Part shown: in pieces, positions 1-62,500 of the stretch
How the letters are laid out: every line of letters starts with the position of its first letter
Numbering within the stretch: the first letter of the stretch is position 1
Assembly: GCA_905178155.1 (NCBI GenBank)
Contig: CAJINV010000015.1
Location: 333,309-397,308, forward strand
DNA: 64,000 nt
Direction of reading: 5' to 3'
Source: Amoebophrya sp. A120
Lineage: Eukaryota; Protista; Dinoflagellata
The notes under the pieces: generated by a model
What the model saw: the letters and a program-made list of their open reading frames with translations, nothing else
Databases searched by the model: none
What the model was told of the DNA's origin: nothing
Made by a program: the position numbers and the translations under genes

Positions 1-3000
1 CTCGAAAATCAGTTTTTGCACCGCAAACTTCTTCACCGCGCGTTGCATACGGCCACGGACAATCGGCAGCATCTCGTGCGCCACTCTGTTCGACTTCTTG
101 TCGTCTGCTGTTGGGTCATACCACGGTGATTCAGCTCGCACGTTCCAGTCCCTTAGCAAGGCTATGGGAGTGTCGAGTTTTTCCGCCCAAGCCGCTTTAT
201 TTTTGATCGTCTTTTGCATTGTCTCCTGTTTTTCCATCACGTCCACTGCGACCTTAAACAAGGTCCTCCCGAGCGCCCGCAGCTCGTCCTCGGAACACCA
301 GCGTCCTAACGCCGCTACTTCGCCGGGGGACAGGCGCACGGCCTCAGTCTGAGTTTCCAGAAATTCTCCGAGACGCTTCAGCTCTTCAGCCTTCACCTTT
401 TCGGACTGTTCTCCAAATTGCAGCGAGTTAATAGCGGGCTTCTCAGCACGATCTCCAAGGAGGGCCCGGATGTCGAGAAGCATCGCCAGGCGTTCTCCGA
501 CTCGTTTCAGGGGTGAGGATTCCGGGGCGAAAGCTGCTTCTGACTCGGGAGTGAGCGCGTCCGCGACCCGATAGCGCTGGAGCCAGTGGGCACCGGTAGA
601 GGAAACGAACGGGATGTACTTATTGTTCCTGGCTTCCCAGTGAAGGACCTCATTGTTTGTTGGGTCGTTTTCTCTGATGGGCCCGAAAAGGTCATCAAAC
701 ACACCGAAAATTATGGATGCGTCAGGTTTGAAATGGTCAAAGTTGAAATGGTTTGTCATGCATAAAACGGATACCAGTTAGACCTACAGTTTGTAGTCGG
801 CGCATGACAAATTTTCCCGGTCCTGGAAGCGAGTCTGTCATGCGGTTTAGGGCAAAAGAGCTGCCTTCTGTCATGCTAGTCAGCAGTCCAACTCCTGACC
901 CTTATCAGGACTACAATCTGCCTTCCGTGCGTCCTCTGCAATAGAGTCACTTTTTGAATCGCATTTTATGCATGACAAACCATTTCAACTTTGTCGATTT
1001 CAACTCTGACACAACCATAAAAATCTCTCTGAGATTCTCGACCCGACTCTCGGAAATCGCCTTCTGGAGGGCCGTATCAAATGCAAAAGTGTCTGGGTCT
1101 GGAAGATAATTACCAGGTTTGTCATGCATATTTTGGATGACCCATGATGTCTGTGATGCACGCTCTAGCATCACAGATTTTTAGAGGACTTTGCGATGCC
1201 TCTGCCGCAAGAGAAATGCCCTCTCCGCGTAGCACGAACTGGAGTTCTCTTGCTGGTCACTCATGCAATACAAATTTTTTCAGAATCCAGAGACAGCATT
1301 ACAAGTTTAGAACCTTCCAGACCCAGACATTTTTGCATTTCATAGGCCCAACCCAGACTCTGTGCGGCATGCCCGACATCCACATCTTCCTCGGAGGTCG
1401 ACGAAGTTTTTCGCAGCCTGGAAGTCGATCCTCTCTGCTATGGCGTTCTCAACTGTTACACTCTCAACTGTTGCATGGACTTGTGATGCAAGAATGGGAA
1501 AAGTGAAAGGGGGGGCATTACGCGTCTTGCATGACAGATTTGGCAAAGATTATCATCCTGTTTCGTTTGGCCCTTCCAGGATTTGTCACGCAGAACAGCT
1601 TGATCGTGTAGACTAGATGATCATGGTGCTTTTGCATGAGAAATCATGTAACAGTTGAGAATGTAACATTTGAGAACGCCATATCTGTCGAGTCGGCGAG
1701 GCTGCGTCCTCTTCCACATCCAGGAAAACATCTGCGCCAGCATATCAAAATGAAAAATCCCTCCTTCCCATATCAAAACGGAAATCTGTGATGCGGGATT
1801 TGTGTACACAAATCGCATTTGTCCTGCAGGGAAGCACTGCGCGCAGATGGCAAGCCCAAGAGGGGGCCTTTTGGTGTAGGGGCCCAGCATGGCAGACGTC
1901 TGCCCTGTAGGCCTTGAAGCATTACAAACCGCCTGCATAATATCGCGGCGGACTCTCTGGATTTGCCTTCTGGCAAGACGGACAGGATTTGTGGTCACAA
2001 ATCTGCATCTAGAAATTTTTTTCAATATGGGGAGGGGGGATTTTTCCTTGCAATACAGCATCTGCGTGGCTATCGTCCCGCGTCGGCAGGAGCGACGGCA
2101 CACCGAAAGCTCCTGCAGGAATCGAGCCGTCCAACGAAGATTTTTTCCGGGTTAGTTTTTTCCCGCCAGGCTTGGTACTTCCGTCTACTTCCTCATCGGG
2201 TATATCAACATCGCTATCATCGCCGTCCTTCTCTTCCGCCAACTTCCGGATCCTATCGTGCCAGCCGAGAATCTATCAAGAAGAAAAATCCCCCCTCCAG
2301 CCCATATTCAAAAGACAATTTCTGTTCGCTGGGTTTGTGTACACAAATGAGCCTTCTATTGCAGAAAGAGCGTGGTGGCATATTGATTCTTCTGGCCCCA
2401 TTTGGGTACTACACATCCGGCTAGCAACTGAGCATGAGAAACAAGGCTGACATATGCGAAAACGCATGACAGACTCGTTGTACAACAATGCGCCACATGG
2501 GTGCCGTTTGCCTTGTACGCAAGACAAAGCTGATTTGATTTGTGGTCACAAATCAGCATCACTAATTTCTTTTTTCGATATGGGAACGGGGATTTTTCCT
2601 TACGATAGAATCTTGTGCTTCAGCACCGCATTCTTCTGCAGGTGGTGCAAAGCGAGCGTGAACCGCGCGGTGAGGTCGGATTCGAGTTTTACCAATTGCG
2701 TGACCTCCTGTTCCTGTAACTTGAGCACATTCTTTATGGCGTTCTCAAACGTTACATTCTCAACTGTTACATGGATTTGTAATGCAAGAACAGCAATAGT
2801 AAAAGTGGCAATATTGCAGCTTTCGCATCACAGATTTGCCACAGATTATCATGCTGTTTAGCCATTCGAAAATTTGTCATGCTAAGCACCTTGGTAAAGT
2901 GGAGGCTGATGGCAACTTTGCATGACAAATCCGTGTAACAGTTGAGAATGTAACAGTTGAGATTGCCATATTCTTTGTCAAGGCGTGCCCCTCCGGAAAG

Positions 3001-6000
3001 CCGTCGGCGATCACGTAGCTGGCCAGCATCAGTTCGTGCAGGAAGGAAAGCACTCTGTGGATCCGGTTGATCTGGGTAATCAAATCCTCCTGCAGGACAA
3101 GTTTCTGCACACCATTATGGCATTCTCAACTGTTACATTCTCAACTGTTACATGATTTCTCATGCAAAATTGCAATTAGTTATCTACACGATCAAGCTGC
3201 TTCGCATGACAAGTTTTCAACGCACTAGATAGCATTAGAATCTGTGCCAAACTTGTAATGCAAAAGGCGCAATCTTCCGCCTTGGATTTTTGCCATTCTT
3301 GCATTACAAATCCATGTAACAGTTGAGAATGTAACATTTGAGAATCCCATAACCATTTTTCATATCATCGGCTTGCTGTCGGAGAAATTTGAAGTATTGG
3401 GCGAAAGAGTCGATGTTTGTCACCGGGCCATCTACTGGTCTACTTTGCGCAGCACCGTGTTGATCATTCTGGCGCGGCTCACTCAAAACCACCGCCCAGT
3501 CGGGGTGGGCGAGCATGCGGGGCACCAAAGACTCGGTCAGCAGTTTCAATAATTGCTCGAAACAAAAGTCTATGCACTGCAAAAGTATCGTACTCGTTGA
3601 AATGCATGACAAATTGTTCCCTCAGCATGAAAAATAAGATTTGTAAATGAGGATTTAGCTTGAGAAAAAAACTTGTAATGCATGATTGCAATACGAGTAT
3701 CAGATACTTTTGCACAGGATAAAGTCCGGCCGTTTCGTCGCCGTTCGCAGGTACTGCAGGGCGTGCAGCTGGGCGCTATCCAGTGCAAAAATGTCTGGCT
3801 CTGGAAGATTCTGACACTTGTCATGCACGTTTTGCATGAGCCATGATGTCCGTGATGCATACCCTAGCAATACAGATTTTCTGAGGGCTTCTTGATGCAT
3901 ATTCCGCATGACAAATGCCTTCTCAGCGGAGCAAATATTGCATTCCCTTTGTACTCATGCAATACAGATGGTTTTGGAATCCAAATGCAGCATCACAAGT
4001 TGCATTCTTCCAGACCCAGACGTTTTTGCATTTGATAGGCGTGCTGGTTGCCGAGCGAGTGTTTCTCCGTGACACTTTGGTCGGCCGCCTGGAAAAATTT
4101 CAGGAAAAAGTCCACCGTTTGCGCCGGCAAATCGCTGTGCAAAAACACGCTGGCTTGCAATTGCGCATTGGTCAAAGGAACGTTAGCGTGGTCCACTGGT
4201 CGAGTGTGCTCCAAGCCTTGAAAATAGTACTTTTCCAAGTGCGCCACAAAGTTCAGCAGGAGACCGCTGAATTGCAGTGCCTCCGTAGGAAAATGATCGC
4301 CGTCGTGGATCTTCCCCTCCGTCGGGTCGGATCCGGCGGGGTTCTCTTCGTTTTCTTTCTTTTTGATTTCCAGTATATCATTTGTAAAAACGTCCCCACC
4401 CCAGAGTCAAGATGGGGATTTTGCAACACAAACCTCGAAGTTTTGGGAGCCACGCATGACAAGTTGCAGGCTGTAGTGTAATGCAGTTTAGAAAGGGAAC
4501 CCGCATAACAAATTGATCTCCTTATCCTGTTTGAAGCATTACAAGTTCCAAAATACGCTGGGAAATGCCTCTCATGGGGATGCGCATTACAAATGCTCCT
4601 GCGCTTGCAGATCTGCATGACAACTCTGGGGTGGGGATGTTTTTACACAGGATACAGTAGTTCGCGCCGCCACTGCCTTTCAATGTCAAACACAAACACC
4701 GACTTGGCGTACTTGTGCATACCGTTCGCGATGTATGACAGTGCACAACTCCCCCTCCCCCTCATTTGTATAGCATGAACGGCAACACAAGCATCAGCCA
4801 GAGTGCCGGTTTTGCATGACAAAGTTGCACTAGATTGTAGTGCTAGTTGGGCTACCAGAACTTGTCATGCAAACAGTGCCAAGAGGCAAAGGTTGGGTGG
4901 ATTGGGTATTTTGCATCACAAACGAGGGGGAGGGGGAGGTGTGCACTGTCATACGATGCGGTTCAGAAGCTGGTATTGCCTTTGCGGAATAGTGGTGGCG
5001 CTCGCACTGCCCTTTGGTGTCAACAGCGGGGTTAGAACCTCCTTGTCAAGGAGCAGATTGTGCGGCGTAGAAGAAGTCCTCTCAGCACCAGCTCCCTCAC
5101 TGTCCCCCTTGGTTTGATGCCTCGCGGCGCCGGCTGGTAGCAGTTGGCGACTACTACCACCGCGGTGGAACAAATGGACACGATGACCTTCCTTCTCGTT
5201 ACTACTGAATAGAAACAGCTCTACTGCCTTCACGAGTTGTGTCATTTCCTGCGCAAAGTGGACTCGGTCAACACCCAGGATGGTTTTCTGCCGTGCTTGC
5301 TCGTGGTAGTGCTTGTCATCCGTCTATCCTGTGTAAAAACATTCCCACCCCATGCCATACTTGTTATGCTAAACAAAATGCGACACACTTTGCCCCCCCA
5401 TTGTGCCATGGCCGCAGATGGGCATGTCAAAATGTTTCTCATACGGAGCCCCATGAGAAGCATTTCCTGTTCGTGCTTTAGAATCTGTAATGCGCCAATT
5501 AGCATAGTAGCCTAGATTTTTTGTGATGCTGCTGAAGAACGAGCTAAACGGGATTACACTCCCAGGCCAAAGAACTTGTCATGCAACAACCTCCCAGGCC
5601 AAAGAGCAACAATCTAACCTTGTTGATTTGCCTAGCAGTTTTCCCATTTGTCTATGGGGTGGGGACGTTTTTACTCAGGATACCGGAGTCTGTGTATTTT
5701 CCGTCGTCTGCACCTGCGAGTGTGCGTTCTTCATGTTTGATTTTACCGCCGTACGCAGCAGCGCCAGCAAATCCGTGACTACGGTGGTGCGCTGGTGCAG
5801 TGTCAGGGCACCGCGGATTCGTTCTGAGGCGTGCTCTTTATCATTATCTCCCCCCAGCTGCGTTGTTTTCAGGTACCGCTCGCCGACGGCCAACAGCGCC
5901 TGCAGTGCGCGCTGCTTGACTTCTTTGGGTAAGTTATCCTGTGTAAAAACGTCCCCACCCCAGCAGAGTTGTCATGCAAATGCGCAACGACAGGAACATT

Positions 6001-9000
6001 TGGAATGCGCATCTCCATGAGAGGCATTTCCAGTCGTGTTTTGGCATTTGTAATGCTGTAAACAGGATGAGAAAGTGGCTTTCTCATGCGGCTTCTCTTA
6101 ATAGCCAGCACTGCATTGCAGATGGAAACTTCTCATGCAGAACTCCCAAAACTCGGGGATTTGTGTTGCAGACTTCCCATCTTGACTATGGTGTGGGGAC
6201 GTTTTTACATGGGATATAAGTCGAAGGTAATTTCTTGCAGCTCTTCCAGGGCTTTTTGGTTTCTGGTCAGGACCGGATGCTGACCAACGGCGGCCGACGG
6301 TGTAGTCCCCCGGACGCCCAAGGTTCGGGCGAGGAGGCTCGGATTACTTTCCGGGGCCGCGCCACCTCCCACCGGGGCAGACGGTCTCTCCTTCAGCGCA
6401 CTGTAAGTTGGAGAGGAATCCTTCACCGTTTCTACCAGGGACAACAGCAGCTGTTTCAGGAACATCTCCTGCAGACCACGACCAGATGCTAATGCTATGA
6501 AATGCAAATTTGTCTGGTAATGCATCACCTAGCATCACAGATTTTTAGAGGGCTTCCTAATGGGTATTCCGCATGACAAATGCCCTCTCCATGCAGCACA
6601 AACTGGACCCCTCTTCTTGCTGGTCATGCAATGCAGATTTTCTTAGACTGCAGAGACAGCATCCATACACATGTTGCAACTTTCCAGACCCAGACATATT
6701 TGCAATGCATAGATGCTGTACCAGCACGACCTTCTTCGGTGCTGTCGTGACCAGCGGCACTAGAAGAAGTCCTCTGAGGTGGACCGCCTCGTTCCCGATC
6801 CTCCTGCCCAGGTTCTGCTTCGTTCCTCTCTTGAAACAGTCGAAACACCGGCGGCACCATGCTGAACGCCAACAGCTCTTTTGCTGTAGTTGACTTGTCG
6901 GCAGCAGCTGCCCCTCCTGTCGGGTTTTGTAGTCCCTTGTGCGCGCCGCCTGAAGTACTAGCCGCTTCTACTTCAAAGCCCGAAGAGCCCCAGTGGTTGC
7001 GAAGGTCGTCCTATCCTGTGCAAAAGTATCGCACTCGTAGTAATTATCGCAGTCATGCATTACAAATCTTCATCCCAAGGTAAAACAGCATGACAAATTC
7101 CATTTGTCATGCTCAGCATGACAAATTGAGTTTGTCATGCTGTTTTACCTCAGCATTGCTGAGCTAATTTGTCATGCGATTTATACTAGTACGATACTTT
7201 TGCAGTTCATACGTCCGAGGTCAGGCTGGACTCCGCCGGCCGTTGCACCGTGGTGATTTTCGAGTCGTCGGACGAGTTATCTTATCAAAAGTAAAAGTGT
7301 CTGGGTCTGGAGACTTGTGATGCTGGGTGGCGTCTCGTGATGAGGCTACAGATGCTGGCTCAGCATGACAAGTTTCTGAGCTCCTAGGTGTTTGCTATTC
7401 TGCATGACAAACTGCGCCTCTGCATCACAGAAAAACGGAACTCTTGGGTAACGTGCATGACAGATTTAGGAGTCATGCCAGACAAGCATGACAAACATGA
7501 ATTCTTCCAGACCCAGACTACATTTTTACAGTTGATATGTCTTGGCCCTTATATAGAAACTGCCACTTTTTCCCCGCCTCGAATTGGTCGCGAAACTGCG
7601 TTTGCAGTTTCGTACGGTCCGTGGTGTCCGAGGAAGCTGCGCCGAACAGAGTCGGCCCGTGAAATTCTCCATCGAGCAAAGTCTTTTCGTCAGCGCCCCG
7701 AGGGAACGCCGGTTTCGCGGTAATAGGTGCGTCAAACCCAAACAGTTCCTGGAGGCCGATGGAAAGCGCCTCCTTTTTTTTCCCAGTGGCCTTGAACGTG
7801 AGAGCTTTCGGCGAAATCAGCTGGTAAAAGGCGTATCTGAGGTGGAAGCTGCGTATCTCCAAGATCTCGTTCTGAACCGTGTCCGACGCTTCTTTTTCTC
7901 TTTCTTGCTTCATTGTTCCAGCTTCTTGGCAAAGCATCCCACGTACGTCCCTTGGCACATCGAATGTGGGACCTTCTTCCACCTTCGACAGGCACTTCGT
8001 TGTCAAATTTTCAAGCACTTTCCGTATGGGCATGGCATCCTGCGCGAGCGCTAGTTCGAGCCCTCCCATCACGTCGGCTATTGCGAGGGAAAATCCCCCC
8101 TCCCCATACGAAAGCGGGACATTTCTGAAAATTTGTGGTGCTGATTTGAGACCGCAAATTGTTCCTGTATTGCAAGGAGGCAAATCCGAAGACCCTGCCG
8201 CGTTTTTGTAGGCAGTTTGTCATGCTGTATGGCCTACGGATGATATTCCTGCCTTGCTAGGCGCCTACACCAAAACGCCCCTTCTCCGGCTTTGGATCTG
8301 CCTGCAGTCTTCTACTGCAAGACAAAGACGATTTGTGTACACAAATCCCGCATCACAGATTTCCATTTCGATATAGGGAGGGGTGATTTTTCCTTCTGAT
8401 ATCGGCGTATTGATACTCATTGAACATAGAATCCTCCCCCAGCCACTGCAGGAAGTTCACATTCACTATCCAAGAAAAAAACTGTGTTAGTGTAAGTAAC
8501 TTTCTTTGGCTGACAGCATCACAAATTTGCTCTATATGACAGAGAAAACCTGTCATGCGTGGCTTGTAAGAGAAAACACACATGAAAAGAGGATTTCATC
8601 GCTGTCTGGCATGACAGGCGTGACTCTGTTGCATGCTCTGCAACACAAATTTACACTTACACAGTTTTTTTCTTCCATATTCACTCCCCCTAGAAGCGCA
8701 GCAGGACGACGACCTCCCGCACTGCCGGCGCTGAGAGATGTTGCTGGGCCGAGGAAAATATCAAGTGCAAAAATGTCTGGGTTTGGAAGACTCTCAGACT
8801 TGTCATGCAAGTTTTGCATGAGCCATGATGTCTGTGATGCATGCCCTAGCATCAGAGATTTTCTGAGGGAGGCTTCTGGATGCCTATTCCGCACGACAAA
8901 TGCTCTCTTGTTCCCGTAGCAAAAATTACACTCCCTTTGCTGCTCTCTCATGCAATACAGATTTTTTTGGAATCCAAATGCAGCATCACAAGTTGCATAC

Positions 9001-11778
9001 TTCCAGACCCAGACATATTTGCATTTGATAGAAAAACTCGAGAATCGCGTCGACACTGAACAAATCGGAAAACTTCAGGGGCGGGGGGCGGAAGGTATGC
9101 TTGCGAAAGTCGATGTTGACCTGATATTTGTTCGAGTCGGTGTTATGGCGAGGAGTGGGCTGCTTGTTTGGCCACAGCTTTTCCCAGCAGGTGTGGGGAT
9201 GCTTGTTGTAAGTCGTCTGCTCTGCAATCAGCCCCTGGGAGTACAAGTCTTTCCGCCAATACGGATTATAATACGGCTCGCGGTCCCGAGACCAGTCCCG
9301 CACGTTGAAGAGCAAAAGGTCCAGCGCAAACTCAACACCCTCGAAGAGCTTCCGCGGATGGTGGTACTGCGGGTTGTATTGTGAGGAAAAATCCCCCCTC
9401 CCCATACCAAAAAGGGGCACTACTGCAAATTTGTGATGCTGAAATTTGTGATGCTGATTCGTGGCCACAGATCGTCCCTGTATTGCAAGAGGGCAAAGCC
9501 AGAGACCCGGCCGCGTTTCGCAGGCGCTTTGTAATGCTGTATCGCCTACAGAGGATATGCCTGCCTTGCTAGGCGCCTACAGCAAAAAGGCGCTGCATCT
9601 GCCTGCAGTCCTCTACTGCTAGACAGATTGGATTTGTGTACACAAATCCCGCATCACAGATTTCCGTTTTGATAAGGGGAGGAGGGATTTATTTTCACTT
9701 TGATAAGTTGTTGTGCGCGCTTTGCCCGTTGCTGCCAACCGTGACTGGTAGGAAGTCCTGCTGCCGGCGAACCAGAAAGCTTTTGGTCACGTCCGTGCGC
9801 AGTTCCTCCACTTCTGCGTGCCGCTTTTGGAACGCTGCCCGGTTCTCACCAGCAGGCACATCTCTAACACTAAAGTGCGACATAACCTCGGCGTTCAGAA
9901 AAGCGTGCGCGTCCTCAACCTCATACAGGAAATCGTGCAGCGCGAAAAGAAGGGGCAGGTGCGTGATGCTTTTTTTAAAGTCCTGCACCTTTTTCTTGAT
10001 CGACCGTCTAGAAGTTGTACCCACGTTCTTCGTGTCCTGTGCAAAAGTATCGTACTCGTATTGCAGTCATGCATTACAAATCTCCGTCTTAATGTAAATC
10101 TGCATCACAAATTTTATTTCTGTTGCTGAGGAAATTTGTAATGCATTTATACGAGTACGATACTTTTGCACAGCATACTTCGCGAGCAACGGAGTAGGTG
10201 CGCCGTCACCGCTCGCGCCACCAGAATTAGGCGGAGTGGTGGTTCTGCCCGTTGCGCGGGCGGACGATTGCGGGTCGTCTTCATCCGCCTCGTCGTCACC
10301 CTCCGAGAAAGATTCACCTTGAAGTCCGTCCTCGAAGTTCCATATCCTGTGCAAAGGTTTCGTACTCGTATGAATGCAATTCTTGCATTACAAATCTTTT
10401 GCACTTGCTTAAGGTAAATCCGCATTACAAATTTTATTTCTCACACTGAGGAAATTTGTGATGCATTTATACGAGTACGATACTTTTGCAGTTCATATTC
10501 CAGTCCTCGTCTTCAGCATTCTGCTGTTCTTGAGCTACGCCATCGTTGTAGCAGCCATACTATCCTGCGCAAAAGTAATATTGCGCTCGTAGGAATCGCA
10601 ATCGTGCATTACAAATCTCCATCCCAAGGTAAAACAGCATGACAAATTCCATGGGTCATGCTGAGCTAATTTGTATTGGTGCGCTTCCTACTAGAAGTAC
10701 GATACTTTTGCAGCAGTTCATACATACACAAGATCGCGTTCGCGGACACCCTCGGGAAACGTCTCCCTGAAAAATGCCGCGAAGTTGGCTTGCAAGGACT
10801 TTTCCAACTCCAACAATTCGCTCACCAGCTCTCCTTGCTCTTTCAGCGTCGTCGCTGGGTGGCGGTTATGCATTGCAAATATGTAGTCTGGGATGTCTGG
10901 AAACTTGTGATGCTAATTTACATGCGTCACAAGAAACTGATACTGAGTCCAATACCCAGCCAGGCATAAGAAATTTCTCAGCGATTATTCCGTGCGTAAC
11001 CCGAATGAGAAGTCGCGTTTTGGCATGACAGAAGGTTGGCGCTATTTCACAACACGAATTTTTACAGGTAGTTGCAGGGGTAAATATAGTACGAGTTCAT
11101 GAATACAAATCGAAATCTCGCAATTTCTATTTTCTAGACCCAATCAAATATTTGCAGTGGATAGCGGTCGGGCTGCGCAATACCAGCGCCACCTGCAGCT
11201 CCGGCCGGATTATCTTCCGCATCGTGCGGCAGCCCATCTTGATGACCACTACCCTCGGCAGATGAACTACTAGTTAACAGGCGCAACAAATTCTTCCCGG
11301 TGCTGATTTTTTCGTAGTAGGCACAGAAAATCGCGCTCTTGCGTTGCAAGATCTTCACCGCATTGGCTTTCGGCAGGGGTTTCTTCTGCTGCAGGTCCGT
11401 CCGCGTGTCTTGCAGCCAGGCCCGCGTGACCTCGCCGTTCTGCGACGCGAGCGGCAACAGTTTCTCGACAATCAACTCGCGCAGCTTCCGCGTGCCCCAC
11501 CGGTGCGTCTTGTGCAAAAAGTCTTTTTCCGACAACGCCGGGGCCGCCGGCTGGGAACCGCTGGCCGCCGCAGCCGCCACTGTGAGGACGTTTGGAAAAA
11601 TGTTGAACTGCGGTGTGATTTCTGAAAACGGATCGAAGGTCGGGGTCCCTGGCTGCAAACCACCTCCCAGGTCAACAAACGCCCCTTGAATCAGGCTAAA
11701 TACAACTAGAGCGCCTGCCACCAGCACCACTGTCGCCGCAGCGACAGGGATTTTGGGTTTTCCCTTCAATTTTGTCAT
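1..11778 (-). CDS. Gene 1: large multi-exon hypothetical protein with N-terminal membrane anchor/signal; 24 introner introns; continues beyond left edge
   Basis: ATG 11778 MTKLKGKPKIPVAAATVVLVAGALVVFSLIQG. Junctions translated after removing element+5 nt are in frame: AQPDR|HPATTLKEQ...DLVY|GCYNDG...EDW|NFEDGLQ...LLAK|NVGTTS and LREIF|GVFDDLFG. Not every junction was checked. Confidence 0.8.
712..1019. mobile_element. introner family K (TIR TATGGATGCGTCAG...)
   Basis: TIR; DR aaaat/aaaat; in-frame junction. Confidence 0.85.
1075..1344. mobile_element. introner family A (TIR TATCAAATGCAAAA-GTCTGGGTCTGGAAG)
   Basis: TIR; DR ggccg/ggccc. Confidence 0.9.
1439..1683. mobile_element. introner family B (TIR TATGGCGTTCTCAACTGTTAC)
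   Basis: TIR; DR tctgc/tctgt. Confidence 0.9.
1743..2055. mobile_element. introner family C (TIR TAT...GAAAAATCCCCCTCCCCATA)
   Basis: TIR; DR cagca. Confidence 0.9.
2274..2607. mobile_element. introner family C
   Basis: TIR; DR gaatc. Confidence 0.9.
2735..2970. mobile_element. introner family B
   Basis: TIR; DR ttctt. Confidence 0.9.
3116..3351. mobile_element. introner family B
   Basis: TIR; DR accat. Confidence 0.9.
3571..3721. mobile_element. introner family D (TIR TAT...TGCAAAAGTATCGTACTCGT)
   Basis: TIR; DR aagtc. Confidence 0.9.
3777..4037. mobile_element. introner family A
   Basis: TIR; DR ggcgc/ggcgt. Confidence 0.9.
4376..4654. mobile_element. introner family E (TIR TATC...GTAAAAACGTCCCCACCCCA)
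   Basis: TIR; DR cagta. Confidence 0.9.
4734..4953. mobile_element. introner family F (TIR TATGACAGTGCACAACTCCCCCTC)
   Basis: TIR; DR cgatg. Confidence 0.9.
5325..5682. mobile_element. introner family E variant
   Basis: TIR; DR ccgtc/ccgga. Confidence 0.85.
5935..6216. mobile_element. introner family E (opposite orientation to 4376)
   Basis: TIR; DR taagt. Confidence 0.9.
6496..6711. mobile_element. introner family A, internally deleted
   Basis: TIR; DR aatgc/gatgc. Confidence 0.85.
7012..7211. mobile_element. introner family D with internal inverted duplication
   Basis: TIR; DR cgtcc. Confidence 0.9.
7283..7537. mobile_element. introner family A variant
   Basis: TIR; DR tatct/tgtct. 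Confidence 0.85.
8079..8401. mobile_element. introner family C
   Basis: TIR; DR tcggc. Confidence 0.9.
8467..8679. mobile_element. introner family G (TIR TATCCAAGAAAAAAACTGTGT)
   Basis: TIR; DR ttcac. Confidence 0.9.
8759..9030. mobile_element. introner family A
   Basis: TIR; DR gaaaa. Confidence 0.9.
9377..9705. mobile_element. introner family C
   Basis: TIR; DR ggttg/agttg. Confidence 0.9.
10033..10177. mobile_element. introner family D (left end TGT)
   Basis: TIR; DR cttcg; in-frame junction. Confidence 0.9.
10343..10497. mobile_element. introner family D
   Basis: TIR; DR ttcca; in-frame junction. Confidence 0.9.
10561..10722. mobile_element. introner family D
   Basis: TIR; DR catac; in-frame junction. 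Confidence 0.9.
10867..11163. mobile_element. degenerate introner family A
   Basis: decayed TIR; DR gcggt; in-frame junction. Confidence 0.85.
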
Positions 11779-12462
11779 GACGTGCTTCTGTTCCGGTGTT
11801 GCTTTGAAAACCGGATGTAACAAATTTTTTGAATAGCGAGCTCCAGGGTGGGAGTTTTGACAGTGATATAGGTTTTATTTACGAATGCGAATGGTCGTGG
11901 AAGTTACTTACGGTCTCCTTCCAGCGCAAGTGTAATTTGATAGAGTATTTGATGTTCGGATTTTTTACCTCCTCAGGAATAAAGACCACAGCCTGAGAAT
12001 GTGAATGCCTGCGTGATAAAATGGTTTATAAAAATGGTGATAGACTACATAGACGGTTTTACAATAAAATAGATAAAATGGATTTGGATTTGCTCTACGG
12101 CATAGTAGTAAGTTTGTGATTTAAATGAGTTTTCGTGTTCTGGACAATTTATCGCAATCAAATAGTGCGTAAAAACTGATAGTCGTAAAAGTATTGTGTG
12201 TATTTGGACAGAAAAATATTTATTTGTCAACGCAGTTGAGTTTCATCAAACTCTCGATACAATCAGAGACCAGGTCTGGTATATCATTACCCTTGATTTT
12301 TTTGCGAGTCTTTCTTGGGGGGGCGCGATCCCAACTTTTTGCTATGCGTTCCTATGACGTGAGGGGTCTGACAAGAATCGACTTCTCTATTTTTTCGCGA
12401 CGACTTGGCGAGTCGAAGCAATTACAGACTGCAAGAATGTTTTGTGTTCTTATGCTGTGTAT

Positions 12463-52900: not shown

Positions 52901-55900
52901 TCTGCAAAAGCATCGCACTCGTACTAATCGCATTTATGCATTACAAATTTTTTTGCCAAGTTAAATCCGCATTACAAATTCTATTTCTCATGCTGAGGAA
53001 ATTTGTCATGCGATTCATACTAGTACGATACTTTTGCAGTTCATATCACCATGCCTTTCAAATAGGGGGAAAACTGCACGTCCACACAGTTGGAAACATT
53101 TGTCACGTCACAGTACACCTCCGGCTCCTTGATGTTGTAAACCGTTTGTGCGGTTTGGCTCAACCCCAACACCCAGCAGATGGTCCGGTTGTCCCGCCCG
53201 GTGGACAAAAGCAAGTCCGGATCGGTGTCGTTCCAGGCAATTTTCGTGATGCCTTTCACGTGTCCGAAGTTCACCTCGCGAAACGGGTAGCTCGGCTGTC
53301 GTAAGTCCCAGATTTGAAAACCCGGGAGTCTGTCGTCGTCATAAGCGACGATGAGCTGCGTCGCGCAATCTGGACTCCACTGCACGTTGGCGATGTGCTG
53401 GCGATGCGACGGGTCCACGATTTCGGCGCAGGTGCCGCGGGTTTTCAGGTCCCAGATCACGTTATGAATTGCAAAAGTATCGTATTCGTATGAATGCATT
53501 ACAAATTTCCTCAGCATGAGGAATAAAATTTGTAATGCGGATTTGCTTTCAGAAAAAAAATGTATATGCATGATTGCAATACGAGTACGATACTTTTGCA
53601 CAGGATACACGTTCACGCCGTTAGAGGAGGTGGAAGAGATGATGTTTGGCACCTACAAAAGTTGTTTGTAATGCACAACTTGCATGAGAACTTCGGTTTC
53701 TCATGCAAGGCTACGCATGACAAGCTGAACAAGATATTTCATTTTTTACAACACTATGATCCTATTCCTATTATACCTTCCTATTCCACGCCAAGTCGAC
53801 GATTTCCCCTTGCATTTTGGTCTGTCCAGACTGCTTGTGAATTTCTGGCTGCGTTGGGTCCGATAAGTTGAAGATTTGCACCTCGCAATTCCTGCTCCCC
53901 GCGGCCAACACGTTCGACTTATTCGGATGAAACGCGGCACAGCCGGTGTAGTAAATCTGGTTTCCGCCGACTTTCGCGGAGCTGTACAGCAACCCGTTGT
54001 CGCTGCCGTATCACAGGAAAAAAATGTTACAGTTACACATTTGTTGGAATTTCAGCATCACAAAGTTGCCCTACAAGGCAAAGAGAACGTGTAATGCGCA
54101 GACCATAAGGGAAAACCCGCACGAAATGACAATGAGGCTGGCAAGCATTTTCTGCATGACAAAGGTTGTCTGCCTTGCTGGTCTACTTGCATCAGAGTGT
54201 GTAACTGTAACACTTTTTTCGTGTGATATGCCGTGACTGGAGATTATCACCGCCGGGTCGTAGAGATTCAACACCCCGTCCGGGTGCGCGGCGCAGAGTA
54301 ACCCGTATGGGAGCCTTATCCTGAGAAAAAACTGTTTCACTGTGAACTTGTGATGCGTAGAATGGAAGACAGAATTATTTGTCTTGCCACACGACCTGCA
54401 AGACCTCGACTCTTTAGCGGTGTTTTCCATTCGGCAGCGCGCATGGCAAATTTTCTGTGTCATGTGTAACATAGTCTTGTGATGCAGATCTTGCAAGATC
54501 ATCACAGTGAAACACTTTTTTTCGTGGAATAAACCTTCCCTGGTCGAGATCCTTCGCGCCCCAGGAGAGTGAGAGAAACTTCATGTTCTGGAAATCGCAG
54601 GTCGCGATCACGGAGCACTGATCGTGCGATTGGGTTAAGTCAAACGTGCAGAATTCTAGTTTAGACGGTGTCTCCTGGTACGAAAAATCCGCGTTAATCG
54701 AGGGTGTGGCGGATTGAGAAGTCCCTAACGCGATCAAAGCTATGACAGTGCACAATTTTTCCCCCTCCCCCTCATTTGTCATGCAAAAGCCCAAATCCAC
54801 GCGCTGCCTTGTGGCCGCACCGTTTGCATGACAGATTCTGGAAGCCTAAACACTACTAGCTACATGTTGACGCGCATGAACTTCAACTTGTCATGCGGAG
54901 GCTCCATGTGCGCTGGTTTTTCTATTGCTGCTCATGCAATACTAATGAGGGCGGGGACGGAGGGAAGGTTGTAGTGCACTTTCATAAAATTCGGCTGGGA
55001 TTCGCACGGACACCATGAGACAATAACTCCGGCTCGCTGCAAGGTTTTCAGTGCGGGAACCGTTTGCGAGATTTGCTGCTGCTGGTGTTGCGGTTGCTGC
55101 TGTTGGGCGTGTTGTGGCTGCTGATGTTGACCAAGTGGCCCTCCGGGCTGCATGCCTGGTTGCTGCGGAGCGCCTGGGGGGCCGCCTGAAGAATTTCGAT
55201 ATATTACTTTGGAAAAAATGCAAGACATCATGATCATCATTCAGATCTTCTAACAATGACGCGGCGAGATGTGTCAGGCAAAAGCATGTTGCTATGCCAG
55301 CATGTAGATCTACTTCGATCATTTTTTTTTTACCAGCACTCGGTCGCTGTGGTGGGTGGTACCCACCGCCCGAAGGCGTTGGGGGCTGCATCGGATGGCC
55401 ACCCCCTCCCCCGCCGTACATAGGTGGCTGCGGCTGGCCGTATTGTGGTTGCTGCATCTGCTGATGAGGTGGACCCCCTCCATGATACTGCGGCGGTCCG
55501 GGTTGTACTCCTGGGGCTGCTCCGTGGTTTATCAAAAGGAAAAATCCCCCCTCCTCATATCAAAACGGAACCTCTGATGCTGGAGCTGTGTACACAGCTA
55601 CGCTTTGTATTGCAGGAAGGCACCGCGGCCAGATCCCCAGCCTAGGTAGGGGCGTCTGGGTCTAGTTGTTCAGCATTGCAAACGGCTGCCCTTTAGGCCC
55701 AACAGCATGACAAATCGGCTCCATAATGGGAGGGAAGCTTCTGCCCTCGTGTTCTTGCAAGACAAATGTGATTTGTGGCCACAAATCAGCAACACAGATT
55801 TTCGGAAACATACCTTTTCAATATGAAGAGGGGGGCTTTTCCTTTCAATATGGTTGTACTGGGGTGCAGCTCCGGGTGCCGGACCACCGTACTGGGGTTG

Positions 55901-56718
55901 GGGCGGCTGCATCTGACCATACTGTTGGTTTCCATACGGTGCGGGTTGTGGGGCAGCTTGTTGGGGCCCGCCGTACTGTAGTATTGTATATTTTTTCATC
56001 TAGGTTTTGATATCTATTGACTCAACACGGGTCATAGTGGTCCTGCATCAAGACAGATCTCGCTCGGATGCGAAAAACTTGACATGTATATACAAGAGGA
56101 AAAGGACGAAAACCGAAACCGCTTTTTTGCCATGCGGCCCTTAGTTATAGATTGCCTGGAGTAAGCAGTTGTTTAAAATCATTGTCTATCCAGTGCATCA
56201 AAAGCATCGTACTAGTATAAATTGCATTACAAACTAGCCCAGCATTACAAATTCAATTTGTAATGCTGATTCACCTTGAGAAAGAAATTTGTAATGCATG
56301 AATGCAATTACTACGAATACGATACTTTTGCATTGCATATTATCCCACCTGTGGAGGTCCGGGTGCTGCCCCGCCGTATCCGCTTGGTATGAACTGCAAA
56401 TATGTCTGGGTCTGGAAGATTGCCAGATTTGTCATGCATATTTTGCATGACCCGTAATGTCTGTAATGCATGCCATAGTATAAGTATTGCAGATTTTTAG
56501 AGGGCTTCCTAATGCCTATTCCGCATGAGAAATGCCCCCTACTCCGCGCCGTAGGACAAACTGGAGTCCTCGTCTTGCTGGTCATGCAATACAAATTTTT
56601 TTCGAATCCAGAGACAGCATCACAAGTTTAGAATCTACTTCCAGACCCAGACATAGTTGCATTTGATACCTGGTTGGCCGTAACCACCACCCGGCTGCGG
56701 AGGGTAACGATTGTGCAT
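43952..56718 (-). CDS. SEC31: Gene 5: COPII outer coat protein Sec31 with Pro/Gln/Gly-rich N-terminal extension; 28 introner elements plus at least 7 GT-AG introns
   Basis: WD40 propeller (LAWNRKVPNII, VIWDLK, QWSPDCATQLIVAYDDD..IWDLR..GHVKGITKIAWNDTDPDLLLSTGRDNRTICW), SFGFGGK motif, solenoid motifs (LNNWKETLALLATYA, KLTQYAELLANSG), Pro-rich region, C-terminal DDTRKRFQAIYDAL...YWLVGIHR. GT-AG introns at 44788-45166, 46508-46895, 48747-48923, 52306-52476, 53653-53776, 55186-55333 and 55976-56348. Confidence 0.92.
44015..44251. mobile_element. introner family B
   Basis: TIR; DR tggtc; in-frame junction. Confidence 0.9.
44441..44688. mobile_element. introner family A
   Basis: TIR; DR tggcc/tagcc; in-frame junction. 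Confidence 0.9.
45301..45452. mobile_element. introner family D
   Basis: TIR; DR caggc. Confidence 0.9.
46190..46443. mobile_element. introner family A variant
   Basis: TIR; DR ttttg. Confidence 0.9.
47211..47549. mobile_element. degenerate introner family A
   Basis: decayed TIR; DR caccg/tgccg. Confidence 0.8.
47725..47904. mobile_element. degenerate introner (G/H-like)
   Basis: TAT...ATA; DR decayed; 5-nt rule gives VRSAVL|CCVCSKNFGK. Confidence 0.75.
47984..48289. mobile_element. introner family K
   Basis: TIR; DR gcctg. Confidence 0.85.
48359..48591. mobile_element. introner family A
   Basis: TIR; DR tgtca. Confidence 0.9.
49007..49237. mobile_element. degenerate introner family F
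   Basis: decayed TIR; DR caatg/cagtc; in frame SDW|NQGPELLI. Confidence 0.8.
49282..49435. mobile_element. introner family D (left end TCT)
   Basis: TIR; DR agttc. Confidence 0.9.
49486..49795. mobile_element. introner family C
   Basis: TIR; DR ttctt. Confidence 0.9.
49839..50100. mobile_element. introner family A
   Basis: TIR; DR gtctt. Confidence 0.9.
50252..50407. mobile_element. introner family D
   Basis: TIR; DR gctcc. Confidence 0.85.
50455..51014. mobile_element. introner family A carrying a ~290-bp internal insert (~50505-50795)
   Basis: TIR; DR tcgtc; length 560 versus ~265 for the family. Confidence 0.85.
51046..51227. mobile_element. degenerate introner family D
   Basis: TIR remnants; DR atgtc. 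Confidence 0.8.
51262..51422. mobile_element. introner family J (TIR TATCACAGGAAAAAGTGTTAACGTTAAC)
   Basis: TIR; DR gaagt/gaaat. Confidence 0.85.
51466..51675. mobile_element. introner family H variant
   Basis: TIR; DR ctcga. Confidence 0.85.
51741..51991. mobile_element. introner family A
   Basis: TIR; DR cgtcc. Confidence 0.9.
52046..52282. mobile_element. introner family B
   Basis: TIR; DR gatgg. Confidence 0.9.
52597..52864. mobile_element. introner family A
   Basis: TIR; DR aaacc. Confidence 0.9.
52896..53045. mobile_element. introner family D
   Basis: TIR; DR tcacc. Confidence 0.9.
53463..53607. mobile_element. introner family D
   Basis: TIR; DR cacgt. Confidence 0.9.
54009..54228. 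mobile_element. introner family H variant
   Basis: TIR; DR tgccg. Confidence 0.9.
54317..54531. mobile_element. introner family H
   Basis: TIR; DR agcct/aacct. Confidence 0.9.
54741..54986. mobile_element. introner family F
   Basis: TIR; DR aaagc/aaatt; in frame QPNL|IALGTS. Confidence 0.85.
55530..55850. mobile_element. introner family C
   Basis: TIR; DR tggtt. Confidence 0.9.
56187..56339. mobile_element. family D element nested inside GT-AG intron 55976-56348
   Basis: TIR; DR ttgtc/ttatc. Confidence 0.85.
56388..56668. mobile_element. introner family A
   Basis: TIR; DR cttgg/cctgg. Confidence 0.9.
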
Positions 56719-57335: not shown

Positions 57336-57486
57336 TATCCTGTGCAAAAGTATCGTACTCGTAGTAATCGCAGTCGTGCATTACAAATCTTTTGATAATA
57401 GGCAAATCCGCATTACAAATTCTTTTTCTAATGCTGGGAAAATTTGTAATGCGATTTCTACTAGTACGATGCTTTTGCATTTCATA
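57336..57486. mobile_element. family D element outside any gene I could assemble
   Basis: TIR; DR aggtg. Confidence 0.9.
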
Positions 57487-59587
57487 AGGTGGACCGACGT
57501 TTTATTTCATCATCGACTAGGCGCTCCTACTAGTTCTAGTAGTTCTACCACATCAAATGCGATGCTGGAGTGTCCAAAACTAAAAATACTCACCGCAAAT
57601 GTGTCTGGGTCCTCTGGAAGATAATTGCAAGACTTGTCATGCTATTGTCTGGCATGACGATGACTCTGAACTCTGTCATGCTAGTTCACGAAGGGCCCCG
57701 CGTGCTTGTGAAATACAAGCATTATCAATACTCGCAGCAGTGGGCTTCATGCCCTGATCTGTTTCGTGGCTTCACCACAACGGCAACAACGACGAGGCAG
57801 AAGACACTAAGTTACGATACGCACAAACGGAAAAAGAAAGATAAAGAGCCAGCGCGTCGTGCAAAAAATTTGGCTGCGTTTCAGGATCGTATCGAAAATC
57901 AGCAGAGAAGCGCTTGTTTAATATTTTTTTAGACCAAAACTACATAAGTAATCGCTCATCAGGAAGACCACATGAACAGCAGGAACACCGAGCGAATGGG
58001 AATGGCACGGGCCACCAAAGTGATTGCGAAATAAACCTTTTCAGCCACAACTCAGGTTGTGTTGTAAATAGAAAAAGGCATTCACACCCCGATCAGGACG
58101 AGGCTTGAGCTTGTCATGCGGATTTTGTAATGCAGGAAAGTAAGCTGAAGCTGAACCAACAGACTGGTACTTAACAAAATTGCCATGCGGAATTTGTAAA
58201 AATGCAGGACAAAGGGAGCTGTAACAGAAAAAAACATCTCATGCAAGACGCAGGGCAGGTAGCTTTCATGTCAATTCGCACGAGAAAGCGTTACATTTTT
58301 GATCGGGGTGGATGGACGTGGTCGCAGTTTGCATTTGTAGTAAAAACCATCTTCCAGAGCCCGCTATATCATACACGTCTACTTACTTTCTATCAGTACA
58401 TTATACAAACAAGAGAGCAAACACACCTATCACCTACTATACTAGCCGGCTGGCAGCATTTTGAATTCCTTTGAAAAGCGACAGCGTGCCTCTTTTCAAT
58501 TTCCGAATCAAGATGCCCTGTCATGTCTCTAGCGGAGCTGGGCGCAACCATGCTCCTCTCCGGGTATAGACGCCGGCAAACTAACACTAAGTGTAAAAAT
58601 GTAAAGCACTAATATAAAAGAACTACCCGAAATCTGTAAAGCTAATTGTTTTTCATGTTTCTTACGTCGTGTTAGAGGTAGTACGAAGTTCAAGATTCAC
58701 AATTGTCATCATCCCGTCTTCCGTCCTCCACTTTGTTTACTGCCGGCGTCTCCGTTGTGAAAGAACGCATTCGCTTGCTCGAAAACATTTACATAACAGA
58801 TGCTCGCTCGTGGTCTCGAGTTCGAGTTTGCGATTGAGAATTTTTGTATGCATGATCTCCATCCGGTTGAAATTGTTCTGGTAGAAGTACTCCGAGTTTA
58901 AGATCTCCACTAGTAAAGCCCGCTCCTGTTATTTCTCCACTACCTCCTCTTCTTTTATTTTTCCTCTTCTTTAATCTATTTTCCACATGGTTTACGACGT
59001 TGGACGCTGTTGCTGCGCCGTCAGTCCTGGCGATGTCGCGGCTACACTTGTTTATGTTTTGTTCTTTTCTTATTGGCGAAATAAAATCTTTTCCGCCAGA
59101 ACTCAGTTTGTAAATAGAAAAAGGCACCCGCACTCCGATCAGGACGAGACTTGGGCTTGGTATTCATTTCAATTCGTGGCCTCGCTTCGTTAGTGCAATT
59201 TCCTAGAGCATAAGGGGCGTTTCTACAGCTGCGCTCGGTTCATCTTGGTCGTGCTTTATTTCTCCATGTTAGATGCAGGAGTTCTTGTAGTTGCATCCAA
59301 TTCCAAGTTCGACCTAAGATAAGTACCAATATTACGTCGTAGTGCTCCACCAGCACCAGCCCGCACCCGTTGGACAACTACGATAAGGCGCAAAGATATT
59401 TATTTAAGGCGCGCTGGAAAATGAAAATGTCCGTCGGATGACGAGGATATAATACTCAAGCGCCGTCTTGTAGTTACATGGAGTAATCTTAGCTTCGTGC
59501 TGAAGTAGTAGAAAGTACTTTATACAAACAGTTGTAAGTACTACTTGCGTTTGCATTTATTGCGCAGCTGTTCGTCGTCCCTTCTTT

Positions 59588-62500
59588 TTACCGACACTGG
59601 TACTCCTTATCCGCGACGCCCGGCCATGGCACCCCTGGAACCTCCTCGTAACGGTTATCGAATGCAAATGTGTCTGGGTCGTCTGGAAGACCAGTGCGAG
59701 ACGTGTCATGCAGTTTCTGCCAGTCCCGGAAGATCGTCGGGCATGGAAGCCCTAGAATCACAGATAATTTCGAGCAGGTCTCCAAATGTTGGTGTTGCCT
59801 GATGCGCATGACAAATCCCCTCTTTCGGTATACAGAACAAATGGAGCCTTTTGCTGGCCATGCATGGCAGATTTTATCATGATGTAGAATTCGCATCACA
59901 AATTGCGATCCTTCCAGCCCCAGATCGATATTTGCAATGCATAGCAGTTGGCGGCGAACCACTTCCTTTTCTTCCAGGTTTCCATGTAACTCTGCCCGCC
60001 GAGGTGGCGGCGGATTCCGGACGGTAGCGGCTTGGTGCCGTCGCGGCTCCACCCGCCGCCCGCGCGGCCCGACCAGAGCATTTTTGCCACTGTGAGCTTC
60101 GCGATCTCTGGGTCATTCCCCGGAAGGGAGGACGCGATTTCAGGGTTCGGAAACCATTGCCCTTTTCCGTTGAAGTACAAAAAGGCCGCGTCGCCCGGCC
60201 CCCCCTGGAGCTGCGAACACTCCCACTTTCCCAGCACATCGCCGTTTTTGCGCCGCGCTTGTGGTTGGATAGCCCAATCCGCAGAGTCGAGAAGGCCAGC
60301 AAGATTATTTGAAGACGTCGAACTGCTCGGCGCACTAGTCTGTGCACGGTTTTGATGATCGTTTAAGGCCTGACGCTCCTGTGTAGATGAAGTCTGCCCC
60401 CCGCTTCGAAAGAACGTCCTTCGCTTACCTCCGGCGAGTACTAGTTGGTGCCGCGCGAGGGCCTGCTGCAACACCTCTGGCATTCTTTTCACCTTCGTGG
60501 GGTCTGCCCGGAGTAAGGACATGTAGAGCCCTATCGGTCCCGTGGTATCCCAAGGGGTGTTTCCGTAGCTGTGCAATTCCGCACGGCGGAATAAATGGTA
60601 GATCATGTCCCCGAGGAGTAGGTTTAGAGGTTTCGCCGCCATGAAACCATTTGTCAAGCCTTGTAATGATGAGTCTTGATTCGGCCAATTGGGCAACTGC
60701 TTGATAGCCGGAAACGACTCGAAAAAATTAGGGTCTTTGACCCCAAACGAAAACGAGAACTCTTGGCAGGCAAAGATGAGCCCAATGTCGTCCTTGTTTT
60801 GCATTTTTTCCTCCGCAACGACCGTGCCCGCGACGGGGTCTCTCGTCACTTTTCTTGGGGACCGGAACTTTTCCGTCCCGGAAAACGCCATCTCCAAGAG
60901 CTTGTCCCAGCCGACGGTCGGGCCGACTTTCCAGTCACAGTAGACGCCTCCTTCCCGGTACAGGAATAGCAAGCGGAACAAGTCGGATTTTATCAACTGC
61001 AATTGTGTCTGGGTCTGGAAGAGTGCCAGACTTGTCATGCAGGTTTTTCGTGACCCATGAGGTCTCGTCTGGTATGGAGGACATAGCGTGACAGACTCTG
61101 TACGGCGAGTTCTATCATGCCTACTTATCCTACATGATACACTGCCTCTCGATTAGGTCAAAAGTGGACAGCATTTGGTAATCATGCAACACAGATTTTT
61201 ACGATGAGTGTGATTCAGATTGATTGAGCATGACAAGTTGCTTTGTTCCAGACCCAGACATATTTGCAGTTGATAGATTTCATGGTGTAGATATCGAACG
61301 CGTCGAAAGCCCAGAGCATTTCCTTTTTGTAATGCTCCTGCAGATATTCTCTCGCCGCATTCAGGTTGAAGAACTTCTATCCTGTGTAAAAACATCCCGC
61401 TCACCCCAGAGTTGTCATGCTAAACAAAATGCGACACACTTTGCCCCCCCATTCATTGCACCATGGCCGCAGATGGCTTGATGCGCCGGGCGGGTGGGTC
61501 AGGCGGACACCAAAGTGCCATCACCATCATCTCCCGGCCACTTTTTCTCCCGACCCCAGAGTTATCATGCAGATCTACAAGCACAAGAGCATTTGTAATG
61601 CGCATCTCCATGAGAGGCATTTCCCATGATCGTGTTTTAGAACTTGTGATGGTGCTGTAAACAGGATAAGAAGATGGATTTGCTATGCGGCTTCCCTTGC
61701 TAAATTGTATTACACTACAGCCTGCAACATGATGTCATGCGTGCCTCCCAAAACTTCAAGGTTTGTGTTGCAAAATCCCCATCTTGACTCTGGGGCGGTG
61801 GGGACGTTTTTACAAATGATAGCTTCACTTCAAACTCTTTCCCCGGTCCCGCGTTTAACTTGGCCCACTGCGCAAATCCTTGTGTTAAAGTTGGATCTAT
61901 CCACTGCTGATACTTCAGAAACTCGTCCAAAGTCACATCCTTCTCGTCAAAAAACGCTGTGAGAATCAGAGTTCGCGGAACTTTCGTCTGGACAGGAGGA
62001 GCAATATTTTTTTTGTAGAAATTCCTTTCCACGTCGTCAATCGAGGCTTGGGTCAAAAAACCGTGGTATTTCTCGTGCATCATCCCCACTGGTTCCTTAA
62101 CGTTTTCTATGTCCTCTGTTGGCCACACCCCCGGGCCGTCGTTGTAGTCGATATTCTCGTGGTGTTTCTGCGGGTCCTGTCGTGGAGAGTCGCCATCGCC
62201 ATCGCCACCACCGTCATCGCCACCACCGTCATCGCCACCACCTCCATCGCCACCACCGCTACCGCCATCGCCACCACCCCCGCCGCTAAATGGCCAGACC
62301 ACGTCTCGAAACGAAACGCATTCTCCTTTTCTCGATCTCGTGTACAAAGATTCACTCCAGCCGTCGAACCAGGGAACGAAAATTAAAACGCAAGTACCGC
62401 CTGCGAGGACGAGAAATACGAGGAGAAGAATGAGCACGCACTTTTTCGTGCAGCACTGGCAACAGCCCCCGCGGGAGGAGGTTGTTTCCACATTCTCCAT

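Follow-up and report, generated by a model that had tools for sequence, protein, structure and literature searches.

The ~30,000 non-canonical introners of Amoebophrya pose two questions that have been left open in print, namely their mode of movement and the way in which splicing proceeds in the absence of U1 or GT-AG. We address them using a 64,000-nucleotide stretch of Amoebophrya sp. A120 (contig CAJINV010000015.1, positions 333,309 to 397,308; hereafter the window), a eukaryotic region whose minus-strand genes are broken up by short inverted-repeat elements. These elements and the grammar of their ends are already known in print (PMC7789003). Our reading, which we hold with a probability of about 0.7, is that they are miniature inverted-repeat transposable elements (MITEs) acting as introners, with TAT...ATA ends and random 5-bp target-site duplications (TSDs), that they are moved in trans by one putative DDE transposase of the rve type, that they carry an internal word bound on double-stranded DNA and that they are spliced at fixed offsets from their ends. 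An initial annotation, made from the sequence alone, had already proposed that one trans-acting system reads all the families, and the data below argue in its favor.

The introners and their families

We curated 75 elements with terminal inverted repeats (TIRs), of which 59 were called automatically with a TSD match of at least 4/5 required and 16 were added manually; nine automatic calls were discarded, one of these being restored manually. A 76th element (17216-17431) was uncovered via an RNA joint. Together the 76 TIR introners sum to 18.4 kb and comprise eight families and six singletons:

F1, 19 copies, ends TAT-S-V-A-N-TGYAAAW-TGTCTGGGT: 1075-1344, 3777-4037, 6496-6711, 7283-7537, 8759-9030, 10867-11163, 17918-18158, 19606-19916, 44441-44688, 46190-46443, 47211-47549, 48359-48591, 49839-50100, 50455-51014, 51741-51991, 52597-52864, 56388-56668, 59656-59943, 60991-61275
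F2, 18 copies of ~150 bp, GCAAAAGTATCG: 3571-3721, 7012-7211, 10033-10177, 10343-10497, 10561-10722, 15835-16066, 16463-16612, 17701-17850, 18864-19018, 30742-30886, 45301-45452, 49282-49435, 50252-50407, 51046-51227, 52896-53045, 53463-53607, 56187-56339, 57336-57486
F3, 9 copies of ~320 bp, GGAAAAATCCCC: 1743-2055, 2274-2607, 8079-8401, 9377-9705, 16683-16997, 19223-19547, 30207-30531, 49486-49795, 55530-55850
F4, 6 copies of ~210 bp, GAAAAAA: 8467-8679, 16202-16411, 40238-40446, 51466-51675, 54009-54228, 54317-54531
F5, 5 copies without an AAAA tract, TATGGCGTTCTCAA: 1439-1683, 2735-2970, 3116-3351, 44015-44251, 52046-52282
F6, 5 copies with the consensus motifs all on one strand, GTAAAAAC: 4376-4654, 5325-5682, 5935-6216, 12463-12741, 61378-61821
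F7, 6 copies without AAAA, TATGASAGTGCAC: 4734-4953, 14938-15156, 18556-18809, 22087-22318, 49007-49237, 54741-54986
F8, 2 copies without AAAA, TATGG..GTCAG: 712-1019, 47984-48289
Singletons and degenerate copies: 17216-17431, 21416-21681 (ends uncertain), 21792-21982 (ends uncertain), 30027-30135, 47725-47904, 51262-51422

The elements are short (median length 258 bp) and non-coding, and combine TIRs with a uniform TSD and a high copy number, as expected of MITEs; in run X1, summed contig depth reaches up to 164,000 over element-rich bins vs ~25-31 on single-copy contigs. Extra copies came from 164 loci (701 kb including overlaps) retrieved in one metagenome scan with the F1 end pattern. These loci carry the same families and have no region orthologous to the window; F1 is over-represented in the pooled set (201 of 435 elements), from which locus elements with a TSD below 3/5 or of at least 600 bp were excluded. 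A search of viral contigs for F1 ends gave 0 matches. The independence of the families rests on unmasked clustering, a BLAST of masked consensus sequences being invalid for this purpose as masking split even known subfamilies.

Certain copies depart from the common layout. The F1 copies at 50455-51014, at L065:3862-4492 and in L010 have in common an extra segment of ~250-300 bp, 69-87% identical between loci, which represents captured or nested cargo. Of the copies at 12463-12741 and 56187-56339, one seems to lie in intergenic DNA and the other inside or beside a canonical intron, so not every copy splits an exon.

Element ends and target duplications

TAT starts 145 of the 152 window ends, and the extended form TAT-N7-AAA is found at 110 of these and in 86% of the 870 ends of the pooled set. 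The initial annotation had attributed TAT-N6/7-AAAA to most ends and to all families, and its four example ends were located at 1075, 7012, 4376 and 8467. The former part of this claim stands (90/152 ends), whereas the latter fails with F5 (0/10 ends), F7 (0/12) and F8 (0/4), which together account for 0/26. It had also noted mismatches between the two ends of an element at positions ~4-8. Left and right ends are identical at positions 4 to 8 in 37, 44, 41, 33 and 56 of 75 elements, respectively, and at positions 9-14 in 63-71 of 75; hence, the statement is borne out for positions 4-7 (33-44/75).

Positions 4, 5 and 7 (also 10, 14 and 15) are hypervariable across the window and the loci, with a difference of 24-56% between nearest neighbors even where interior divergence is at most 5%; in the bin of closest relatives, 20/36 ends show a difference at position 7, as against 85/945 sites in the interior. 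The variable positions travel as linked blocks (CAAAT, GCATT, GGATT; Cramer V 0.58-0.79), with T almost never seen at position 5. Since positions 4-7 are hypervariable despite similar interiors and are linked in blocks, the alignments suggest that end segments are exchanged between copies. Selection for left/right mismatch at positions 4-7 was separately considered and rejected, as the observed values approximate those of permuted pairing in most alignments (F2 being lower, and F5 and F7 slightly higher).

When elements were called without use of their flanks (TSD-blind), a perfect 5-bp duplication was found around 41/54 window and 288/378 locus elements; duplications of 4 bp and 3 bp numbered two and six, and those of 6-9 bp zero. 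The TSDs are random, 337 of them comprising 286 different sequences, and the target logo is flat; among 320 nearest-relative pairs 0 have identical TSDs, with a mean match of 1.22 of 5 bases, against 1.26 when elements are paired at random. A staggered DDE cut would create a new duplication at each randomly hit site, which neither class of tyrosine recombinase (YR) predicts (see below); this pattern argues for a DDE mechanism.

A phased internal word

The interiors are marked by the word GCAT[GCT]ACA[AG], of which there are 195 copies in 14.5 kb vs 1.9±1.3 in 100 dinucleotide shuffles, and nine strict copies in the 45.8 kb outside the elements. It is present in 72 of the 76 elements, and its consensus is GCAT-B-ACA-R-R-T. 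Both strands are used (150 vs 132 sites with the relaxed pattern). Every family had been described in the initial annotation as studded with this word on both strands, roughly every 20-50 bp. The enrichment is confirmed, while two families, F6 and a 109-bp family, have every consensus site on a single strand. The spacing holds only for the relaxed GCAWBASA (median neighbor gap of 34.5 bp, with 60% of 208 gaps within 20-50 bp) and not for the strict motif, which occurs once per 74 bp of interior.

The word is conserved and positioned. Across all 17 family alignments (nine groups by end type), its columns are more conserved than the remaining interior columns, with a nearest-neighbor mismatch of 5-8% vs 9-19%. 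CpG decay was rejected as the source of this contrast, CpG and non-CpG interior columns being alike. Measured from the nearest end, reverse-strand sites fall into clusters at 33-34, 41-45, 64-65 and 72-77 bp (e.g., F1 has motif pairs ~41-43 and 72-75 from its ends), with a phase of R=0.52 at a period of 10.5, compared with 0.18-0.34 when the period is set to 8, 9 or 11-15. Spacings of 31-33 bp, equal to three turns of the helix, make up 26/56 of those between adjacent same-strand sites, and such a pair is featured by 8/9 groups and both window copies of F8. F6 copies within one restored open reading frame (ORF) of 1883 aa bear the motif only (5325, 5935) or mostly (4376) on opposite RNA strands. 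Motif density drops as the TSD decays, at 1.26, 1.13 and 0.89 per 100 bp (n=337/74/25; p=0.002), and two old copies without a motif match (17216-17431 and 47211-47549) are still exactly spliced. Because the motif is conserved, phased and strand-independent, falls in density with TSD decay and is dispensable to the splicing of those copies, the comparison of copies points to binding sites on double-stranded DNA kept for mobility rather than an RNA splicing signal. Of the two roles that the initial annotation had offered for the motif, that of an accessory DNA-binding site is thus the favored one, and that of a splicing signal is disfavored.

A canonical GT-AG intron (53653-53776) has four motif-like words and an end-like TGTAAAAAATG, and is possibly a decayed introner turned normal intron. 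A repeat with different inverted ends (CACCCCGATCA) bears the word twice at 58084-58310, with a partial second copy ~1 kb off (59070-59160); RNA contigs cover this repeat unspliced. A satellite block (32430-39000; GAAC, TTTTGCATTGCACAAAATCGA, GGGACAA/TGTCCC) has inverted terminal copies and no introner motif.

Probable splicing at fixed offsets

We treated runs X3-X7 as RNA, given that their contigs also skip canonical introns. All 10 element-spanning RNA joints skip exactly the element length plus 5 nt. When each element is taken out together with 5 nt (2 or 8 nt serve equally), one ORF of 1883 aa is restored across 24 elements and another of 1562 aa across 14; reading frames alone give the removed length only modulo 3, and it is the RNA that fixes it at 5. 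The first gene (4960-11800) and the region 19000-22400 yielded no spliced joints, which is evidence neither way, and in-silico splicing of 44000-53650, with canonical introns left in, gave no discrimination.

With a perfect TSD the cut may slide over six registers, and an imperfect TSD pins it. Two degenerate copies allow a single register:

17212-17432, minus strand: intron consisting of 1 nt, the motif-free element 17216-17431 and 4 nt; RNA joint 17211->17433, which skips 221 (both=0)
47207-47550, minus strand: inferred intron consisting of 1 nt, the motif-free element 47211-47549 and 4 nt; in runs X3 and X5, transcript pieces stop at 47206

The register of the former is fixed exactly, its TSD matching at just 2/5 positions; in the latter, the two TSD copies differ at positions 1 and 2, and this fixes the register. 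The registers allowed by imperfect TSDs, under the leftmost-joint convention of the tool, are {1} for 17216, {1} for 47211, {0,1} for 56388, {1,2} for 59656 and {0-4} for 14938. One rule fits all five, namely that the intron comprises the last base of the upstream TSD copy, the element and the first four bases of the downstream copy; with uniform registers, the chance of this five-way agreement is ~1/6 x 2/6 x 2/6 x 5/6 = 0.015 (by hand). Under the 1+4 rule, donors read AT, TT, GT and CT in 44, 42, 39 and 35 of 160 cases, and acceptors read AG in 12/160, a composition unlike that of canonical U2 GT...AG introns. Hence, splicing of the introners likely takes place at set distances from their ends (1 nt ahead of TAT and 4 nt beyond ATA), without GT-AG. 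The TIR stem, which folds in 3/3 RNAs tested, including two old copies, could act as a hairpin that positions these cuts. As the 1+4 offsets equal the 5-bp TSD, removal would be scarless after insertion in either orientation.

Two canonical introns, which end at ~46895 and 53776 (minus-strand donors), have donors that read GTAT. The N-TAT of the introners may therefore imitate the host donor at its positions +2 to +4, the requirement for G at +1 being relaxed.

The proposed transposase and its precedents

Under the transposase reading, a DDE enzyme would make a staggered 5-bp cut, and gap fill would produce the TSD. The outer TAT would signal cleavage, the enzyme would bind at positions 8-14 and at the phased words, and positions 4-7 would be a free spacer; unrelated interiors could have gained mobility by acquiring this shared code. 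Comparable arrangements exist in Tn7, Mu and maize Ds1-type MITEs, which have 5-bp TSDs and repeated subterminal transposase sites inward of a short terminal cleavage signal, and in which one enzyme moves unrelated interiors; unlike the introners, these have other termini and hosts and are not introns. More tentatively, and at somewhat worse than even odds, we posit a single master transposase that reads a modular, helically phased code acquirable by unrelated sequences, coupled to a host splicing machinery that works as a ruler (1 nt before TAT, 4 nt after ATA, GT-AG ignored). Its 1+4 offsets would be tuned to the 5-bp duplication, making insertion at any sequence and orientation scarless, and the outer ~15 bp of the ends would be swapped between copies as blocks; such a co-adapted transposase-spliceosome system would lie behind tens of thousands of non-canonical introns.

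In A120, Farhat et al. 2021 (PMC7789003) described introners of many families as non-canonical introns with inverted-repeat ends of 'TAT, seven less-conserved nucleotides, at least three A' and direct repeats of 3-5 nt (5 bp in the legend of Fig. S19). The splice border was called 'variable' and 'remains unknown', with inverted repeats 1-5 nt from the splice sites (legend of Fig. S23). The window introners are of this type, having TAT-N7-AAA ends, a short direct repeat (5 bp) at the exon/intron boundary and non-canonical removal from mRNA. The portion of that study consulted contains no internal motif, phasing or end reshuffling and rejects mobilization by a transposase. The motif and the splice register were likewise absent from the literature covered, including the supplement text of Farhat et al. 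(searched for 'GCATG'), as was end reshuffling, with figures and some supplements outside this scope.

Among the families cataloged for A120 by Gozashti et al. 2025 (PMC12130899), family 38 is annotated as a TIR DNA element ('Ginger, 5-bp TSD, TA/TA termini') with ORFs similar to Copia/Gypsy. Its resemblance to the window introners is one of annotation, which may go part of the way towards the DDE element that the initial annotation had named as evidence against its own proposal; the sections drawn upon liken the family to Ginger, treat it as one among 'diverse' origins and do not describe a shared code. The rve-type IS3EU, GingerRoot and IS481EU elements have TA..TA, TAYGG..CCRTA or TNT..AYA termini, TIRs and a short TSD (PMC10045372, PMC6839031, PMC12730594). 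Termini of the TA..TA and TNT..AYA kinds are characteristic of these elements and speak for an rve-type enzyme. The introners share with IS3EU and GingerRoot the TA..TA termini (given the predominance of TAT starts) and TIRs, and F5 and F8 begin with TATGG. The termini of Ginger1 and Ginger2, TGTNR (PMC2836005), differ from the TAT of the introner ends, and the reverse internal word begins with TGTNA. Euglenid nonconventional introns (PMC11282704) are alike in their TIR-paired ends, which lie a constant distance away from non-canonical junctions, in their TSD-like repeats and in a probable MITE origin, but differ in their offsets and consensus, and circular intron RNA is reported for euglenids.

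Several points weigh against the transposase reading. With respect to the enzyme, of the 149 locus ORFs the 101 longest gave 0 DDE matches (E<=1e-6), there was none in the window, and long TIR pairs (432-1104 bp) are without a transposase-like ORF as judged by eye. Farhat et al. did not find an A120 transposase and argued against transposase mobilization (PMC7789003). Family 38, at ~808 bp, is too short for autonomy, and the main text describes it as without Ginger termini and TSDs (PMC12130899). The TSD of IS3EU and GingerRoot is usually 6 bp and that of IS481EU ~4/15/25 bp, as against the 5 bp of the introners (0/378 with 6 bp); because their TSD is usually 6 bp, we do not claim membership of the introners in these groups. 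With respect to the word, forward-strand positions lack the 10.5 phase (R=0.28), the F5 pair is spaced by 28 bp, spacings of 39 and 18 bp recur, and the subfamilies are not independent, which inflates p-values. With respect to splicing, the register derives from five introns and one RNA sample, the two copies that fix it exactly are old ones, the retained bases may have been altered by RNA editing, and two of the three folds are overall not significant (z -0.95, -1.44).

Three long TIR elements of 813-1104 bp (L021:505-1608, L016:1536-2348 and L031:632-1465) display the same code and have no recognizable transposase ORF. The shared phased word offers a bait for purifying the mobilizing protein and a signature for the autonomous element, and imperfect TSDs yield a fixed splice register that can be checked genome-wide in existing RNA-seq.

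Alternative readings

An unlikely alternative retains the DDE transposase for mobilization but has a host DNA-binding or chromatin protein bind the word, either as a transposition cofactor or as a mark aiding co-transcriptional splicing. Strand independence and phasing would suit any binder of double-stranded DNA, and the word is shared by families with differing TIRs. A few copies or near copies also occur outside TIR elements (13627, 14684, 58111, 58125 and in the canonical intron 53653-53776), though strict copies there number just nine in 45.8 kb. Also counting against this alternative, old motif-free copies remain spliced, and when ends are scored with the motif profile, those of F1 and F2 have their maximum at position 3, in approximate phase with the internal sites, albeit weakly (1.1 and -0.6 bits).

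Quite improbable is a spread via an RNA or single-stranded DNA intermediate, by reverse splicing or by a long terminal repeat (LTR)-type integrase acting on a cDNA copy, with the word serving as an RNA structure or packaging signal. All elements are transcribed and excised as introns, LTR integrases produce 5-bp TSDs, and the end reshuffling might stem from template switching. However, the copies terminate exactly at TAT/ATA and not at the splice points (-1/+4), and they occur in both orientations; in the one-strand families no pairing between motifs is possible, and a spacing of 31-33 bp is in keeping with B-DNA.

We give scarcely any credence to the proposal of the initial annotation that a YR encoded in the window, or a relative of it, excises the introners as circles with an ATA-N5-TAT junction and then reinserts them, as fresh random 5-bp duplications, which no nearest relatives share, do not support a loxP-like mobilization. 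The features concerned are:

27832-28770, minus strand: YR-like ORF of 312 aa, with Atlas features at 0.98 to Phage_integrase clusters and a PHROG integrase match at E=0.09
25979-29840, minus strand: the YR gene's own element of 3.9 kb, with repeats A (115 nt; 25979-26093, 26319-26433) and B (158 nt; 26162-26319, 29683-29840)

The protein is indeed YR-like, and a head-to-tail junction of introners is formally equivalent to inverted arms around a spacer. Circles may also arise in DDE systems, so circles alone do not separate the two mechanisms. IntDOT, moreover, employs a variable 5-bp coupling sequence. The published A120 family 5 has a DIRS peptide match, which also counts against the transposase reading, but none among 50 of the 58 A120 family rows is finally classed as YR or Crypton (PMC12130899). 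Identity of the overlap is required by homology-dependent YRs; those of the IntDOT/Tn916 type can recombine overlaps that are not identical (PMC2817482), which would leave unlike flanks. Neither the homology-dependent nor the coupling-sequence YRs predict perfect flank duplications at 76% of elements: there is no fixed or inherited flank via overlap identity, as in lox, Crypton and DIRS systems, and neither the non-identical end overlaps nor the conserved target core of Tn916/CTnDOT, the target having no consensus. The head-to-tail pattern with spacers of 0-12 nt gave three matches in the window and the 164 loci (0, 6 and 10 nt), none with 5 nt, a weak test. No circle joint occurs among the 15 listed of ~2400 contig joints, which is also a weak test, as contigs drop rare forms.

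The annotated link of the YR-like protein to the introners is supported by none of the tests here, and its gene sits in an element of its own with split direct repeats, which accounts for its presence without the introners. Repeats A and B overlap by 1 nt at the internal B-A junction, and the element has no 5-bp TSD and zero copies of the introner motif. The protein has no Pfam or PDB match, a homolog search (lengths of 171-546 aa) returned itself only, and its single-sequence fold is unusable (pLDDT 35). In PAT/Ngaro YR retroelements (A1-B1-A2-B2; PMC4157794) there are, likewise, a YR ORF, downstream split direct repeats and an internal junction copy. The element differs from these in that no reverse transcriptase/RNase H or gag ORF, or any further ORF >140 aa, was seen in it, and in an extra foldback. 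It is probably a non-autonomous derivative of a PAT/Ngaro-type YR element. The foldback (26024-27096) is a perfect one of 521 nt, either real or an assembly artefact. Also within the element, a small Lys/Ala-rich ORF with an acidic tail (27091-27306, minus strand) has no Pfam match; its composition is reminiscent of DVNP or histone H1-like tails.

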